18,890 bases of DNA from a virus (Duplodnaviria; Heunggongvirae; Uroviricota; Caudoviricetes): the IMG/VR virus record IMGVR_UViG_3300017989_002952, positions 1-18,890 of that record. One strand, 5' to 3'. A model generated the notes under the pieces. It did no database searches, had not been told where the DNA came from, and saw nothing but the letters and a program-made list of their open reading frames with translations. The position numbers and the translations under genes were made by a program. Numbering within the stretch: position 1 is the stretch's first letter; each line of letters begins with the position of its first letter. Shown here piece after piece: positions 13,031 to 18,890 of the stretch.

Positions 13031-13067
13031 ATCCTGTGTTTAATAACCCGCATAGAGAGGTATGAAT

Positions 13068-14306
13068 ATGCCAGCTGCTAAGTATCCAGGATTAAAAAAA
13101 TGGGTAAAGAACAAACTAATAGAAGGAGCAAGACCAGGAGATATTTATGAAACTGCAGTTAGGCGGTTTCGTTATGAAAATTCGCAAGATCAATTTGGAC
13201 ATTATTGTAGAGGAGTAAGGAGAACAGAAAAACTCCCACCAGCAGGACCCGCCAACCAATACACCAACGGAAATGGACACACTGAAGAACCAGTTGACGA
13301 AGATGCGGCGTTATTCCTGGCTGCTGTCCAGAATAAGAAACAGGTTGAGGTCCTAGCATTATGTGAGCAATTAGATTGCAAACCCAAGCAAATATTTGAA
13401 TATGTTGAATACTTTAGAACAAAAGGTGTTGAACTATCACTACAAAGCGGTGTTATCTTTTTCAACACTTCAGCACCAGCAGCAGTTGAACCAGTGTCTC
13501 AAATTGCTGAGACTGAGATTGTCTTTGGTGTAGCTTCTGATTTACATTTTGGATCAAAACATTGTCAAATAACTGCTCTAAATACCTTCTGTGAGATATG
13601 TAAAAAGAAGGGAGTTAAACACATGTTCTCACCTGGAGATGTAGTAGCAGGTTACAATGTTTATCCTGGTCAACAGTTTGATGTTTATGCTTTATCAGCT
13701 CAAGAACAAGAATCATCAGTTGTAACAAATTTACCAACAGGTTTTGAGTGGTATCTGCTTGGTGGAAACCATGATTATGCTTTTATTAAAAGAGGTGGTG
13801 GACATAACCCAGTCTTGTCTATTGCATCTCAAAGAGAAGACTGCCATTATGTTGGTTTCGATCAGGCAATTATTCCTATACTCAACGGTGTTGATTTATC
13901 TATGTGGCACCCAAGTGGAGGCGTCCCTTATTCGGTCTCATATCGACTCCAAAAGGGTGTAGAACAGATCGCATATAGTGAACTCACCAATATCGTTCGA
14001 GGAGTTAAAGACAAACCCACCATAAGATTTATCCTTTCAGGTCATTTACATATTCAAATGCAAGCATTGTTTGGGAGTATTTTTGGTTGTCAGTGCGGTA
14101 CATTTGAAGGACAAACAAATTACTTGCAGCGAAAAAACCTTGTCCCAAATATTGGTGGTTATATTATTAAAGCTGAGCTTGGTAGAAACGGTTTACTAAG
14201 AAACTTTGAAGCTAAATTTTATGTATTTGAAGAAGTTGAGGACGACTGGAAAAACTATAGACATTCAGTAATCTCACCAAAAATAGAGAAGCCAGTTTTT
14301 GCATAA
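13068..14306 (+). CDS. Calcineurin-like metallophosphoesterase with an N-terminal putative winged HTH (412 aa)
   Basis: All five motifs are present: SDLHFG, PGDVVAG, GGNHD, WHPSGG, SGHLH. ATG 13068 is 7 nt from SD agagagg; ATG 13062 is an alternative start. Confidence 0.9.
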   Translation: MPAAKYPGLKKWVKNKLIEGARPGDIYETAVRRFRYENSQDQFGHYCRGVRRTEKLPPAGPANQYTNGNGHTEEPVDEDAALFLAAVQNKKQVEVLALCEQLDCKPKQIFEYVEYFRTKGVELSLQSGVIFFNTSAPAAVEPVSQIAETEIVFGVASDLHFGSKHCQITALNTFCEICKKKGVKHMFSPGDVVAGYNVYPGQQFDVYALSAQEQESSVVTNLPTGFEWYLLGGNHDYAFIKRGGGHNPVLSIASQREDCHYVGFDQAIIPILNGVDLSMWHPSGGVPYSVSYRLQKGVEQIAYSELTNIVRGVKDKPTIRFILSGHLHIQMQALFGSIFGCQCGTFEGQTNYLQRKNLVPNIGGYIIKAELGRNGLLRNFEAKFYVFEEVEDDWKNYRHSVISPKIEKPVFA

Positions 14307-14307
14307 C

Positions 14308-14331
14308 AAAAATGGGGACCTCCTATCCCCA
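14308..14331 (-). terminator. Intrinsic terminator of the leftward operon
   Basis: Stem tgggga (14313-18) / tcccca (14326-31), followed on the minus strand by TTTTT; it sits at a convergent gene junction. Confidence 0.65.
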
Positions 14332-14508
14332 AGGTTTAAGCAATCTTTGCGCTGCGTCAAACCCAAACTCACGGGTGACCAGCACAAAGATTGCTTGCAT
14401 TATTGAAAGTTTAGCGGCTTCAGAGGTATGACTTGGATGATTGTCTGCATACTGAAGAGCTCGCGCTAATTGACTAATCATTGTTTTGTCATCGTGTGAC
14501 GTTTTCAT
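14323..14508 (-). CDS. Hypothetical protein (61 aa)
   Basis: ATGA overlap with the upstream stop (14505-14508) indicates translational coupling. Confidence 0.65.
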   Translation of the reverse strand: MKTSHDDKTMISQLARALQYADNHPSHTSEAAKLSIMQAIFVLVTREFGFDAAQRLLKPWG

Positions 14509-15344
14509 ATTGGTGATGGTATCCCCTCTCGGTTACAGAAGTTGATGAGGTCGTCTTCAGTAATACTAGAGTTCGGGTTAGTTTTGATGGTTCCGGCTCT
14601 GTGCATTCCAAGTTGTATCCATTCATGTGGATAATACTTATGAAATTTATCCAGTATTTCTTTCGCGGATTCTGGACTTATTGGAGGATTACAACCCTTA
14701 GCAACATCATCAAAACTCCCTGTTGTAACGAATATATTCAGAAACGCCGCAATTGTAATACCCAACTCACCTACAGCATTCTCATCCCCAACTCCAAAAT
14801 ATTTCTCGATAAATTTATCCTTTTCCTTTTGTTTAACACGTTTATTGAGGATGTAATGCAAGGTCCCTTTTGAGGAAATTCCGAATTTCTCCATCGTAAG
14901 ATCATAAGATCGACATTTCTGATAGAACGATCTCACCTCATCATTGTCGTACTTCTTGAGATGAGACGCCGCATTTTTAGAGCACCGTTTGTGGGTCTCT
15001 TCACCTTTAAGTTGTTCACTTTCTTTGAAGGTCATCAACTCGATGTTACTCTTTCGAATATTCATTGGATTGCTATCAAGATGACGTATAACCAAGTTCG
15101 GATCGAAAATTTTGTCTCCAAACTTTTGGTACGCAGATAGCTTTCCAGCCTCGACCTTCAAGTGTTCTCTGTTTGGTCCACGAACAGAGAATCTAGGGTT
15201 ATAGTTTTTACCGGAAGCGTTTAACCTCAACTTTTTACCGGTAACACCAATCACATCATTACCAACTACTCGATATCCTTTTTCATAGGCGAGTAGTAGA
15301 GCTTTCACCGCCTTACTCGGTTTTGTCTGGTCGCTTTGGTACAT
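14505..15344 (-). CDS. HNH (HNH_3 / I-HmuI-like) endonuclease-derived protein, probably inactive, fused to a C-terminal HTH-like domain (279 aa)
   Basis: ATG 15344 with SD GGAGGTG (the track's TTG start overlaps the SD). Contains the KLSAYQKFG...VIRHLDSNPMNIRKSNI HNH core, an HTH-like SYDLTMEKFGISSKGTLHYIL, and a ~100-aa extra C-terminal domain. Confidence 0.75.
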   Translation of the reverse strand: MYQSDQTKPSKAVKALLLAYEKGYRVVGNDVIGVTGKKLRLNASGKNYNPRFSVRGPNREHLKVEAGKLSAYQKFGDKIFDPNLVIRHLDSNPMNIRKSNIELMTFKESEQLKGEETHKRCSKNAASHLKKYDNDEVRSFYQKCRSYDLTMEKFGISSKGTLHYILNKRVKQKEKDKFIEKYFGVGDENAVGELGITIAAFLNIFVTTGSFDDVAKGCNPPISPESAKEILDKFHKYYPHEWIQLGMHRAGTIKTNPNSSITEDDLINFCNREGIPSPI

Positions 15345-15549
15345 TGTGTTCACCTCCAATATGTATCATTTCTAGTACAACTTCGTCAAAATCTACCATA
15401 ACATCATCAATCGTAGGAACCGGTTGGCCGCTTTCCTTCAATCGACTTTCAAACTTTTTCCGAAAGTCATCCAGATATTCTATCAACATCTTCTGGATAC
15501 CTTCTTGATATTTTCGCCATGCTTCACTCGACATGTCCAAAATGTTCAT
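15313..15549 (-). CDS. Hypothetical protein (78 aa)
   Basis: ATG 15549 with SD AAAGGAG, 2 nt after the upstream stop; starts MNILDMSSEAW. Confidence 0.7.
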   Translation of the reverse strand: MNILDMSSEAWRKYQEGIQKMLIEYLDDFRKKFESRLKESGQPVPTIDDVMVDFDEVVLEMIHIGGEHNVPKRPDKTE

Positions 15550-15551
15550 AA

Positions 15552-16445
15552 TTATTTCTCCTTTTGATGTAGTTGAATTATCTCTGCTGGTTTTGGTGGA
15601 AAGAAGTTTTTCCATGCTTCTGGAAAATCATTCTCAAGTTTTATCAAAAGTTTCTTAACCCTTGAGCCACTGATAACTGGAGTACATACTCGACCTGTTG
15701 GTGCATATTTTCCAGTATCTTTGTATACCTTCAGGAAATCAGTGATCGAAATTCCAAGAGTTCCGTTTTTACCAAAAGTTTGAGCTGCCCATGTCATCTT
15801 CTTAATCTTCTCTCTTTCGGCTTCAACTTCTGCAACATTCTTGATGCTGGCGCTAGTCAACTTAGCTTTTGGTAAATTCAAACTTTCATACTCATAGTAG
15901 AGGTCAGTAACCCGAATACACTCAACAAAACTTCCTAGAAATGAGTAGACGTTCTGTAATAGCTTACTGATAAGATGTACTATACACCAGTTAAAGTGTG
16001 TAGCATCTTCCTTTCTCCAGGTTGTGCTTTCATTCCTAAGAATACCGTCTATATGGTTTACACGAAAGATCCTATTATCTGGTTCTGAGTACATTGACTT
16101 ACCACCGCTGAAACGTAGCCAATCATGATCAATAGGATCTGGAATCGAGACACATAAATGATCTACGGGCGACCATTCTAAAACCAAGTTGTTCTTACTA
16201 GTAAGATACAGAAAGAAGTACGCCTTGGGTTTTCGACGATGACCATATTCATCATACAATTTTTCAAGATTCCAGTTAGAAGGGTTCAGTAACTCATATA
16301 CTCCTTGATTTCCTTGCCACTCAACAAGCTCATCGACTACACTGTCGATTATTTGAACACAGTAGTCGTTCCAACCTTCTTCAATGTTAGTAATACTTCT
16401 TATTTTCAGAACTTCGTCCTGCGCCATTCTTATTAATTCATGCAT
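15552..16445 (-). CDS. Hypothetical protein (297 aa) with a C-terminal HTH-like domain
   Basis: ATG 16445 with SD AAAGGAG. Its C-terminal 49 aa are paralogous to the C-terminus of the HNH fusion. Confidence 0.75.
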   Translation of the reverse strand: MHELIRMAQDEVLKIRSITNIEEGWNDYCVQIIDSVVDELVEWQGNQGVYELLNPSNWNLEKLYDEYGHRRKPKAYFFLYLTSKNNLVLEWSPVDHLCVSIPDPIDHDWLRFSGGKSMYSEPDNRIFRVNHIDGILRNESTTWRKEDATHFNWCIVHLISKLLQNVYSFLGSFVECIRVTDLYYEYESLNLPKAKLTSASIKNVAEVEAEREKIKKMTWAAQTFGKNGTLGISITDFLKVYKDTGKYAPTGRVCTPVISGSRVKKLLIKLENDFPEAWKNFFPPKPAEIIQLHQKEK

Positions 16446-16503
16446 ATTTATTTCTCCTTTCATACAATAGATTGTTTCGAGCTCGTTTAATAATATATAT
16501 AGT

Positions 16504-16539: not shown

Positions 16540-16573
16540 ACCGACTTTAAATCATTCTAAGATCTTAGTCGGT
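16540..16573 (+). promoter_or_regulatory. Possible 5' UTR stem-loop / operator
   Basis: accgact (16540-46) pairs with agtcggt (16567-73); a perfect 12-bp palindrome ctaagatcttag lies at 16557-68, just upstream of SD aaggagg. Confidence 0.35.
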
Positions 16574-16592
16574 GATCTTGAAGGAGGAAAAC

Positions 16593-17465
16593 ATGGTGTA
16601 CAGCAGTCAATTTGTCGCAGTAGTAAAGTGTAATGGTAAAGTCCTTCGTGAAAGAAGTGACGTAGTAACCCTTCCATTTGGTGCTGAATATTCCCTTCTT
16701 TTAAAGAATCTCTCACCACGTAAGGCGTCCGTCAATGTTAGTATTGATGGTCAGGACGTTCTGTACGGAAATTCTCTTATCATCGACCCAAATTCTGAGA
16801 CTGAATTAAAAGGTTTTCTTGATGGGATGACAGTCCGTCATCGCTTTAAGTTCATTCAGAAAACCAAACAAATTCAGCAACATAGAGGGGATAAACTTGA
16901 CGATGGAATAATTCGTATCCAATATGCTTTTGAAGAGCAACGAGTCATCAAGAGAAAGACTATCCTTCATGAGCATCACAAACATGAACACCACCATCAT
17001 CACCATCATAGAAAAACCCATTGGTATAATTATGACTACTACCCACCACTATTTTCTGATAGTAAAGGAGTGGGTTGGGATGATAGTGGGAATGTCTACG
17101 GTTCTTCTGATCAGCTCGTAGGTTCTTCGTTGACATGTAACTCTGGTGGCAGAGGTTTAGAAGGTGAAGTATCTAATTGCTTCTATTCAAATGTCTGTGA
17201 AGATTCTCTTGACGATGCTCCATTGGACGATGAAGGAATCACTGTCCAAGGATCCCAAACCAGACAAGATTTTCATTATGATACTATTGGTAAACTTGAG
17301 CCTTCTCAAGTTATTATTTTAAGACTCAGAGGTCAGACTTCAGGTGGAACAAAAGTTAGTAAACCTGTTACAGTCAAAACTAAATTTCAGTGTCCCACTT
17401 GTGGAACAAGGTCAGGTTCACGAGCCAGATTTTGCGCTCAATGTGGAACTAACTTAGAAATCTAA
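16593..17465 (+). CDS. Hypothetical protein (290 aa) with a beta-rich N-terminal domain, a His-rich tract and a C-terminal zinc ribbon
   Basis: ATG 16593 with SD aaggagg. HEHHKHEHHHHHHH at 16968-17009; CPTCG...CAQCG at 17391-17447. Confidence 0.85.
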   Translation: MVYSSQFVAVVKCNGKVLRERSDVVTLPFGAEYSLLLKNLSPRKASVNVSIDGQDVLYGNSLIIDPNSETELKGFLDGMTVRHRFKFIQKTKQIQQHRGDKLDDGIIRIQYAFEEQRVIKRKTILHEHHKHEHHHHHHHRKTHWYNYDYYPPLFSDSKGVGWDDSGNVYGSSDQLVGSSLTCNSGGRGLEGEVSNCFYSNVCEDSLDDAPLDDEGITVQGSQTRQDFHYDTIGKLEPSQVIILRLRGQTSGGTKVSKPVTVKTKFQCPTCGTRSGSRARFCAQCGTNLEI

Positions 17466-17497: not shown

Positions 17498-17530
17498 TGT
17501 GGGGAGTCCTTTTGAGACTCCCCACATTTC
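17498..17530. terminator. Strong hairpin, probable bidirectional terminator
   Basis: Perfect 11-bp stem tgtggggagtc / gactccccaca with a 7-nt loop, followed by tttc on the + strand. It lies between the zinc-ribbon gene and the array. Confidence 0.75.
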
Positions 17531-17537
17531 GTCCGTA

Positions 17538-18426
17538 AATCCACAGTATTCCATAAATTTCTGTCGCTCAGGAACGCATTACACAAAACTCTAAGATTAA
17601 TTTGACCCCACAGAATCGTGTAAAACACTACGTTAGTGTTTCCCAACATATCCAATGTGTTCTTATCAATTTCTATTGGAAGTTTTACGGGACGGTTCTC
17701 TTTTTGACAAATCATCATAGGTTCGGATCTCATCGAGCAATAATGTCAACAAAATCTGATCCCACATCACCGCATCTAAGCGTATCGAATTCTATCGTAC
17801 TCCACGGTATCGTGAACAACATAATACCACAATAAACCCAAATCCGTCACAATGTTTGAAGACCCATGCGATAAGATTAACTAGTGGACGACTTGTAATC
17901 GCACATTATTAAATCGAACAGGTTGTGATGTCACCCTATCGAATGGTAAGGTGCATGTTATAATACCACATCACACTACACCACACTCAAACGAAACCAA
18001 CATTATCGAACAGAAACCAACATTATGGAACGGAAGCCGATGTTATAATATTACAAGATGGATGCAAAAGTACCAAACAGCATCGCACCTAGTTATATAG
18101 AATCTAATTCTAAAGAACCTTATTAAAAGTTCCACGCCACTACGCACTACGACAAGATAAATGTTCGAATCGCTTCGAATTCTACGAAACATCAAAATGG
18201 AACGGAGTTGATTGGTTCCAAATCGATATGACGTTTTCACACATTATAGAACTGAATAATACACGTTATAAGATACAACAGCATTCGTTGCTTTGCGACA
18301 GGACTTTATCGGATCTTTTCGATTCGTATCGAATTGGATGTTGCATATCACGAGGTAATATCGCAACGCACCAGACGATATTGTATTTCATTGGATTGTT
18401 TGTAATACGTTGTCGCTTTAGACTTG
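17538..18426 (-). repeat. Cryptic pentamer array (AY+NNN on +, NNN+RT on -) in 12 blocks; candidate VIPR-like guide-RNA array
   Basis: Of 173 registered first positions, 142 are A, 23 T, 8 G and 0 C; 17955-18055 has 21 consecutive A at 5-nt spacing. All 11 register shifts are +2 (a 7-nt step). The repeat is seen directly; strand and RNA function are inferred. Confidence 0.9.
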
Positions 18427-18439
18427 ACGTAAGACAGGA

Positions 18440-18487
18440 TGGTTGGGAGGAGACCCAACCACCCCCAGCTAGGCTCCGTCTAGCCTA
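18440..18487 (-). other. Two GC-rich hairpins forming a putative array leader / processing signal
   Basis: tggttggg (18440-47) / cccaacca (18454-61) and taggct (18470-75) / agccta (18482-87), between the stop of the 99-aa ORF and the first array unit. Confidence 0.6.
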
Positions 18488-18784
18488 ACAACAGCAGGCA
18501 GCGAGCTTCTTTCGAAGACGCTCCCGATTTTTGTTTTCTTTCTCTTTCAGGTCAAGTTTACGAGAGTTGTTATGAACTCTTCCAAGAGAAGCGACGGCAT
18601 TTGCTCTTGGAATAATTGCGTCATCGTCAACCTTCACTGTCTTCTTCAGCATACATGCTACAGGGTCTAAAATCTTTTGCATTTTGTAATAACCTCCCTT
18701 TCTTAGTCCGCGTCTCGCTTTTCTCAACCTAGAGATCGCTTTGTTTCTTTCTGGCGTTAAGCCACGAATACCATATTTCTTCAT
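18485..18784 (-). CDS. Very basic small protein (99 aa), probable nucleic-acid-binding accessory protein of the array locus
   Basis: 29 of 99 residues are K or R. ATG lies 1 nt after the upstream TAA; the sequence ends AACCC. Confidence 0.65.
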   Translation of the reverse strand: MKKYGIRGLTPERNKAISRLRKARRGLRKGGYYKMQKILDPVACMLKKTVKVDDDAIIPRANAVASLGRVHNNSRKLDLKEKENKNRERLRKKLAACCC

Positions 18785-18785
18785 A

Positions 18786-18890
18786 TTAAGCCGCTTTCAA
18801 TTTTTTGGATATCACCCCACTCTTAACATTTACAAGCTCGATATGTTCAGGTGGACAGTTATACATTCCGAAATTCGCTCCGCGCCTAGC
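18786..18890 (-). CDS. C-terminal 34 aa of a gene entering from the right edge; candidate RAMP/Cas7-like (Vipr-like) effector
   Basis: Not in the ORF track. The minus strand from 18890 reads ARRGANFGMYNCPPEHIELVNVKSGVISKKLKAA*, then TAA-t-ATG into the next gene. RRGANFGMY loosely resembles a RAMP G-rich-loop end (R...GxFGxF); the identity is inference only. Confidence 0.4.
   Translation of the reverse strand, partial: ARRGANFGMYNCPPEHIELVNVKSGVISKKLKAA

Follow-up and report, generated by a model that had tools for sequence, protein, structure and literature searches.

VIPR (Viral Interference Programmable Repeat), reported in 2026, combines a minimal RAMP protein and a small accessory gene with vrRNAs built from GGY/NN repeats (10.64898/2026.04.26.720920). 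The NN bases of these guides pair with DNA, while every third base of the target, usually the wobble base of a codon, is skipped (10.64898/2026.04.26.720920). In the solved VIPR structure, the pyrimidine at position 3 of the repeat (Y3) occupies a pocket of the protein, facing away from the base that is skipped (10.64898/2026.04.26.720927). VIPR systems are mostly encoded by viruses or proviruses, and their vrRNAs are processed to about 100 nt, associate with Vipr and carry a conserved, structured 3' tail. Non-canonical repeats have also been published, among them NNNGG, YNNNG and NNNNG (10.64898/2026.04.26.720920) and GAC/NN, CAC/NN, WGT/NN and TGH/NN (10.64898/2026.10.21.760802), and published work counts 667 classified systems and 21 non-canonical clusters, with a Vipr tree of seven types. 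VIPR itself, its non-canonical repeats and its tail-less arrays are already on record.

We analysed a stretch of viral DNA of 18,890 nt (hereafter, the window) that carries a tandem array of five-base repeats next to a RAMP gene. An earlier note on this DNA, made from its sequence, had proposed that removing two constant bases from each pentamer reveals contiguous coding sequence, with the third base retaining target information. We read positions 17538-18421 as a vrRNA guide array whose repeat is non-canonical, belonging to a VIPR-family system in an accessory island of a large tailed phage, and we assign this reading a probability of about 0.65. On this view the locus adds one more, unusual case to a system already known; the data do not back the three-base reading.

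Phage and accessory island

The window makes up the leading 18.9 kb of a phage contig of 105.6 kb, and the same DNA recurs in sediment and seawater metagenomes, in contigs of 180 and 184 kb. The carrier is an uncultured large tailed phage, with contigs of up to about 180 kb. The locus lies among virion-protein, sheath and HNH genes, as expected of a virus-encoded system. The whole island is missing at the same position in related phages, although these have the flanking sheath, Zn-ribbon and g20996 genes in common with this one, which indicates a mobile accessory module. The features of the region are listed below; the array was delimited by periodicity and composition, and the hairpins were read from the sequence.

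16572-17465, + strand: C-terminal zinc-ribbon protein, 297 aa, convergent with the VIPR operon
17498..17526, no strand assigned: G+C-rich hairpin GTGGGGAGTC-loop-GACTCCCCAC, probably a terminator used from both sides or the edge of the array
17538..18421, - strand (probable): vrRNA-like guide array, 12 units
17538..17599, - strand: unit 1, 12 pentamers + 2 nt, ends AAGAT TA
17600..17686, - strand: unit 2, 17 pentamers + 2 nt, ends AAGTT TT
17687..17738, - strand: unit 3, 10 pentamers + 2 nt, the least regular, with a stop in the frame read by the earlier note
17739..17815, - strand: unit 4, 15 pentamers + 2 nt
17816..17882, - strand: unit 5, 13 pentamers + 2 nt, AAGAT TA at 17873 followed by 3 extra nt
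17883..17954, - strand: unit 6, 14 pentamers + 2 nt, ends AAGGT GC
17955..18061, - strand: unit 7, 21 pentamers + 2 nt, ends AAGAT GG, internal duplication
18062..18133, - strand: unit 8, 14 pentamers + 2 nt, ends AAGTT CC
18134..18200, - strand: unit 9, 13 pentamers + 2 nt, ends AAAAT GG
18201..18267, - strand: unit 10, 13 pentamers + 2 nt
18268..18344, - strand: unit 11, 15 pentamers + 2 nt
18345..18421, - strand: unit 12, 15 pentamers + 2 nt, with a stop in the frame read by the earlier note
18441..18489, no strand assigned: two short hairpins, GGTTGGG..CCCAACC and TAGGCT..AGCCTA
18485..18784, - strand: accessory protein P0002, 99 aa, basic, directly after vipr
18786..18890, - strand: 3'-terminal part of the vipr-like RAMP gene (whole gene at 18786-19841 on the contig; P0001, 351 aa)

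On the minus strand, the gene order is vipr-like P0001, then P0002, then the array. The two short hairpins at 18441..18489 fall between the stop of the accessory gene and the array, and the hairpin at 17498..17526 lies between the convergent Zn-ribbon gene and the array. The latter was not called by a simple terminator scan because it is not followed by a T run.

Several other features of the neighbourhood were recorded. Directly upstream of vipr there is a gene-free stretch of 1.15 kb with 46% G+C (contig 19842-20995; L001:2842-3995), which contains A-first pentamer runs on neither strand and gave no Rfam match; located in the same inserted island, it may be part of the system. In the contig of the homologue P0010, the array is likewise followed by a zinc-ribbon gene at the equivalent position, and a homologue of the window's zinc-ribbon protein is kept in the VIPR-less relative L048. 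A second variable region is found beside the VIPR island, consisting of three genes in window 13062-16463 that are absent between the adjacent homologues in L048:

13062-14306: Metallophos/exonuclease-like gene
14505-15359, - strand: HNH-endonuclease-like gene
15552-16463, - strand: 303-aa gene of no assigned function

Anatomy of the array

Cut on the + strand at the block starts given in the earlier note, positions 17538-18421 form 12 units, arranged head to tail, with a total of 172 pentamers. Unit lengths are 62, 87, 52, 77, 67, 72, 107, 72, 67, 67, 77 and 77 nt, all of them 5n+2, so each guide unit comprises 10-21 five-base repeats. Position 1 of the pentamer is A in 141 cases (82%), T in 23, G in 8 and never C (0.83 bits); position 2 is T in 88, C in 54, A in 24 and G in 6, T, C and A together accounting for 166 (96%). 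Positions 3, 4 and 5 (N3, N4 and N5) have near-maximal entropy, 1.97-1.98 bits each. The repeat can, thus, be written A-Y-N3-N4-N5 on the + strand and N-R-U/NN on the gene-sense (minus) strand. The two leading bases, described in the earlier note as constant, are not: AT occurs 64 times, AC 49, AA 23 and TT 19, besides others.

Most units end in AAGWT plus 2 nt: seven of them in AAGAT, AAGTT or AAGGT followed by two bases, and one in AAAAT+GG. No long conserved 3' tail is visible after the units, where AAGWT+NN is the only mark. Tandem 5-nt repeats with fixed and hypervariable positions, at roughly 9-16 per guide, are expected of VIPR, and the array contains repeats of this kind. It does not contain the fixed GGY trinucleotide alternating with NN; in its place are an A (82%), a T, C or A, and a fully variable third base. 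Neither Tandem Repeats Finder (TRF) nor reading of the repeats revealed CRISPR-type direct repeats of about 23-50 nt with spacers of similar length, both giving the 5-nt frame and one 20-nt duplication. The RAMP gene is the sole cas-like gene at the locus, which does not have the makeup of a CRISPR array. Given the period of five, 17538-18421 is not a coding region and the short ORFs found there are incidental. No Rfam family matched at gathering level, and scans for promoters and terminators gave no useful information.

The array sequence is identical in four independent contigs. Among the sequencing runs listed as containing the locus, none is of RNA. No variant array was found in the contigs of four source-sample runs, which yielded one 36-nt look-alike: a 297-nt contig from one of these runs matches 36 nt of unit 11 (window 18300-18335) with six differences. 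Its flanks resemble another pentamer array (AAGAT GA .. ATCCC ATTAC), which suggests that a second, partly related array exists in the same community.

A RAMP-fold protein and a small basic partner

P0001 (351 aa) begins with a lysine-rich N-terminal extension of roughly 65 aa, and it has no sequence match in Pfam or the PDB. We retrieved 44 sequence relatives and used 39 of them to build an AlphaFold2 model of the core (pLDDT 85.7, pTM 0.79). A Foldseek search of the PDB with this model gave 62 matches at E<=1e-3, and the top 50 listed were mostly Csm3/Cas7 subunits of CRISPR systems of types III, IV and VII, together with other RAMPs such as Cmr6. Among the AFDB clusters, X1U2U4, the Vipr reference (10.64898/2026.10.21.760802), ranked second (E 2.9e-7, TM 0.70 by hit). 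P0001 also contains a G-rich motif, GARRGANFG, which appears as G.RR.AGYG across the family alignment. The model, thus, predicts a RAMP fold for P0001, as required of a Vipr protein, which is a minimal RAMP made up of an RRM core, a G-loop and a thumb.

The gene that follows encodes P0002, which has no match in Pfam. Homologues of P0002 are encoded directly after vipr in loci L002 (E 6e-7) and L044 (E 2e-4), and the small protein of L052 is linked to P0002 only via the proteins of L002 and L044. In six loci, vipr is followed by a conserved small partner of 66-121 aa. P0002 is a candidate vap-like accessory protein.

Homologous loci

Homologues of P0001 could be traced to contigs at 30-40% identity. 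A-first pentamer arrays with three variable positions were present in all five homologous loci with enough readable flank. The arrays were as follows:

L043: 191 pentamers, A-Y-NNN, with AAGAT/AAAGT marks
L044: A-T-NNN, with a conserved inter-unit element of roughly 40 nt
L002/L003: array upstream
L052: array downstream of vipr
L053:5118-8582: 3.4 kb, about 40 guides and about 500 A-T-NNN pentamers, on a 163-kb phage contig of the same ENA study series

AAGAT/AAAGT marks recur in L043, L044 and L002/3, and L053 has a longer conserved inter-unit element instead. The variable content differs in each of the six homologous loci.

The L053 array is the largest seen. It follows vipr and a 71-aa accessory gene in an AT-rich phage and adjoins a sheath gene, as in the window's phage. 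In locus L002, which encodes homologue P0008, hardly any genes were called over the 3 kb upstream of the array (L002:1-3130). In this locus, a promoter-like motif (TATATATATTAATTAATGAATA) occurs five times, tandem repeats are found at about 2220-2620, and stretches at about 560-1050 are rich in G+C and look structured.

The array beside a Vipr-matching protein of the Cas7/Csm3 fold, the small basic partner and the occurrence of the same array type in five homologous loci place the system in the VIPR family. The absence of GGY lowers its claim to the canonical type but not to family membership, since the published descriptions allow 'a related consensus'. If the system works as VIPR does, one Vipr protomer would cover each five-base repeat and three RNA bases of the repeat would be held by the protein, away from the target. 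N4N5 (on the + strand) would pair with DNA, and every third target base would be skipped and flipped out. The 7-nt mark AAGWT+NN would shift the register by two, ending one filament and starting the next, like in 'staggered' arrays. We infer by the same analogy that the outcome would be the silencing of genes of rival elements.

Transcribed strand

The array RNA probably comes from the gene-sense (minus) strand. In six out of six loci, the A-first strand is the one antisense to vipr, regardless of whether the array is upstream or downstream; the repeated promoter-like motif of L002 lies upstream of both array and vipr on the gene-sense strand; the array is located between the stop of the accessory gene and the shared hairpin; and the gap of only about 11 nt between the hairpin at 17498..17526 and the first repeat is too short to hold a + strand promoter. 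These four observations make the minus strand the likelier one. Its RNA would read 5'-N5'N4'N3'-R-U, that is, repeats of the form 5'-[N3' R U][N5' N4']-3'.

It is also conceivable, albeit doubtful, that this VIPR-type array is transcribed from the + strand as 5'-A-Y-N-N-N, convergently with the genes for Vipr and its partner. In that case A-Y-N would directly correspond to G-G-Y, and each guide would have the AAGWU+NN mark at its 3' end. The order constant, semi-constant, degenerate, N, N is that of GGY/NN and of the published YNNNG, and the base composition fits best as + strand sense codons. However, the antisense orientation in 6/6 loci, the position of the L002 motif and the short distance between hairpin and array all speak against the + strand.

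Role of the third base

The units at their given starts, the decoded strings and the peptides of the earlier note could all be reproduced letter for letter from positions 3-5 of the pentamers. Its count of two stops in the claimed frame was also correct, whereas the other two frames contain 6 and 10 stops rather than 5 and 9. The proposal that follows from this decoding is that all three variable bases derive from the target, so that either each repeat pairs through three RNA bases, with the other two flipped out and every target base read, or guides are acquired by templated addition of three bases at a time. We consider this improbable. N3 is indeed as variable as N4 and N5 (1.98 bits), and the claimed frame has the fewest stops. 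Yet, when N4N5 were kept fixed and N3 was shuffled among pentamers, 4.2 stops were expected against the two seen (P=0.15), a deficit within chance that does not establish contiguous coding sequence. The scarcity of stops in the claimed frame is due mainly to the small number of TA or TG in N4N5. If either codon-phased orientation is allowed, all 12 units are open, compared with a null mean of 10.3 (P=0.10); thus, the window's statistics lie at P=0.10-0.15 and none is significant. A codon-usage likelihood based on the phage's own codon table gave P=0.066, with a score of -20 compared with +16 +/- 5 for codons of its own genome.

Pooling seven arrays of the clade (91 clean runs, 714 codons) gave 22 stops versus 28.4 expected (P=0.063), and 82 out of 91 runs were open in either orientation versus 77.1 expected (P=0.046). 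True contiguous gene fragments would give essentially no stops in the right orientation, and what is observed here is at most a weak trend: in-frame stops, made with N3, occur in 19 out of 91 guide runs, and 9 out of 91 have stops in both orientations. N3-dependent stop avoidance is, thus, not significant in the window (P=0.15) and no more than a trend in the pooled set (P=0.063). The pooled trend leaves room for some target memory in N3, and there is a slim chance that N3 pairs with the third base of the target or keeps a decaying copy of the wobble base.

Base composition was more informative about the phase of the guides. N4 is G-rich, like codon position 1, and N5 is G-poor, like codon position 2, in the window and, independently, in L043. 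Assigning N4N5 to codon positions 1-2 is favoured by 4-7 bits over the next assignment and by at least 20 bits over any N3N4 assignment. The earlier proposal that the pentamers are locked to codon phase with N3 at the wobble place is, therefore, favoured by composition in both arrays, and this phase is what the published VIPR rule prescribes, the skip coinciding with the wobble base. There is no depletion of TA or TG in N4N5, so the case for a coding origin of the guides is a weak one.

The composition of N3 itself departs from the genome background, as a target-derived base might: C accounts for 32% in the window, compared with about 20% in the genome (chi-square about 16.6), which indicates that N3 is not simply drifting. 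N3 is also C-enriched in L043. In L044 it is T-rich (T 44%), a skew expected of a handle base and one that counts against target derivation. The A/T richness of N3 in L053 (71%) tracks the AT-rich context and is uninformative. Among arrays, the G+C of N3 follows that of the surrounding DNA roughly, but not consistently. In the window, coupling of N3 to position 2 and to N4 gave uncorrected p-values of 0.015 and 0.009, respectively; being weak there and not reproduced in L043 or L044, this coupling was dropped as evidence. Unit 7 contains a 20-nt internal duplication (17993-18035) whose copies, over the four compared pentamers, differ only at two N3 positions (ATCGA/ATGGA and ACAGA/ACGGA) and decode to a repeated, acidic peptide-like string. 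Differences restricted to N3 are compatible with either reading.

In solved VIPR complexes, the base equivalent to N3 is buried in the protein and points away from the skipped base, which also disfavours a role for N3 in pairing. Most likely, N3 is a degenerate handle base that stands opposite the skipped wobble base and does not read it. It would be the degenerate member of the protein-held triplet, accommodated in a pocket without specificity and corresponding to the Y of GGY or the W of WGT/NN. The blocks are guide-sized and adjacent to a RAMP gene; that they are gene fragments written 3 nt at a time does not follow from these results, and nothing in the data shows triplet recognition or triplet acquisition.

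Target searches

We searched for targets with the decoded units both as contiguous three-base strings and as gapped patterns (N4N5x) in which every third base is left free. Local searches covered all 12 units, and scans of the collections (viral contigs, metagenomes and genomes) covered 10, with gapped patterns of eight units in viral contigs and of two in prokaryote genomes. When compared with their own 105-kb contig, requiring three of three or any two of three bases, all 12 decoded units gave best scores equal to those of shuffled controls, and a six-frame peptide search of the same contig did no better than shuffles. The decoded strings also performed no better than shuffled pentamers against 0.5 Mb of related and random viral loci. 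The earlier note had itself held that such a result would tell against its claim.

Searches of larger collections with contiguous decodes led to the same outcome, which further weakens a three-base code. Units 17955, 17600 and 18268 (units are named here by their starts) gave only chance matches in blastn searches of 50,697 phage records, and a contiguous 24-mer of unit 18062 had no match in the metagenome collection. Among the gapped patterns, units 18201, 18062, 17883 and 18134 had no match in viral contigs, while units 18268 and 17955 (16 specified bases each) had 35 and 22 matches, respectively, all at chance level on extension. Gapped units 17883 and 17600 had no match in the prokaryote genome collection, nor did gapped unit 18062 in the metagenome collection. 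Guide runs of at least 10 pentamers from five homologous arrays (52 out of 67 runs) scored like shuffled sequences against this phage and the 0.5 Mb of loci.

One candidate was rejected. Gapped unit 17739 (18 specified bases) had two identical matches in viral contigs, located antisense and out of codon phase in a 937-aa gene, and neither could be extended.

With no target under either rule, a match at N3 could not be scored, and the searches do not directly tell the two-base and three-base codes apart. For an uncultured marine phage, absent targets say little about the code. They could also be taken to mean that the array holds no guides and is a periodic DNA or RNA element, for instance a protein-binding or packaging scaffold for the RAMP-like protein. 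The lack of TA/TG depletion in N4N5 and the weakness of the intrinsic coding signals would agree with such an element. This explanation is, nonetheless, very improbable. The hypervariable positions keep a strict 5-nt frame, in guide-sized units beside a Vipr-matching RAMP partner, and the content of these positions differs in each of six loci, as a programmable guide array predicts. Furthermore, published VIPR targets came from pangenomes of named hosts, E. coli and Pseudomonas (10.64898/2026.04.26.720920), and no comparable set of host genomes is available for this phage.

Comparison with described systems

A guide array of the VIPR family being the preferred reading, the closest relatives are the type II VIPR systems of Escherichia phage SUSP1 and a Pseudomonas fulva prophage (10.64898/2026.04.26.720920; structures in 10.64898/2026.04.26.720927). 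The system shares with them a phage-borne minimal RAMP protein with a small accessory gene, guides of about 9-21 five-base repeats in which some positions are fixed and others hypervariable, and a composition consistent with a variable pair on codon positions 1-2. It differs from them in that A-Y (R-U on the opposite strand) replaces GGY, leaving one strongly fixed base and three hypervariable positions instead of two. In place of a long structured 3' tail there is the 7-nt AAGWT+NN, with a register shift of 2, and the Vipr protein carries the lysine-rich N-terminal extension of roughly 65 aa.

Like the published non-canonical repeats, this array consists of divergent pentamers beside a protein of the Vipr fold, with one degenerate position in the triplet. 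On the gene-sense strand, N-R-U/NN is a relaxed form of WGT/NN. As written in the text of the publications, the published variants keep at least one specified G or C, whereas here a single position admits G, and only in a minority of repeats, while the degenerate position is unconstrained (1.98 bits). Relative to those text descriptions, the differences are, thus, the absence of a fixed G, the single strongly fixed base and the free third position. Two further differences from what is described there are the AAGWT+NN punctuation that recurs in the window, L043, L044 and L002/3, and the lysine-rich extension of Vipr. The staggered vrRNA arrays, as presented in the legend of fig. S18 (10.64898/2026.04.26.720920), also have abutting guides without long spacers or tails; according to that legend they overlap by 1 nt, whereas the boundary here is a semi-conserved pentamer plus 2 nt.

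The Cas7 backbone of class 1 CRISPR systems (type III Csm3/Cmr4) is another parallel. The protein fold is alike, as would be the periodic flipping of bases along the guide, but the period is 5 nt rather than 6 nt, and the present system is phage-encoded, with neither a repeat-spacer array nor other cas genes.

Implications for the VIPR family

The clade described here keeps the protein fold, the five-base frame and the gene order, while the guanines of the repeat have been lost and its third position has been freed. It would, thus, reveal how much change the repeat 'handle' can undergo with the protein still counting in fives, and it offers a natural test of the role of the third base in recognition. 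If it were true that N3 reads or retains the target, this would bear on how VIPR guides are made. Specifically, a retained copy of the wobble base in N3 would mean that guides are written from target DNA by templated acquisition, a process so far unknown for VIPR.
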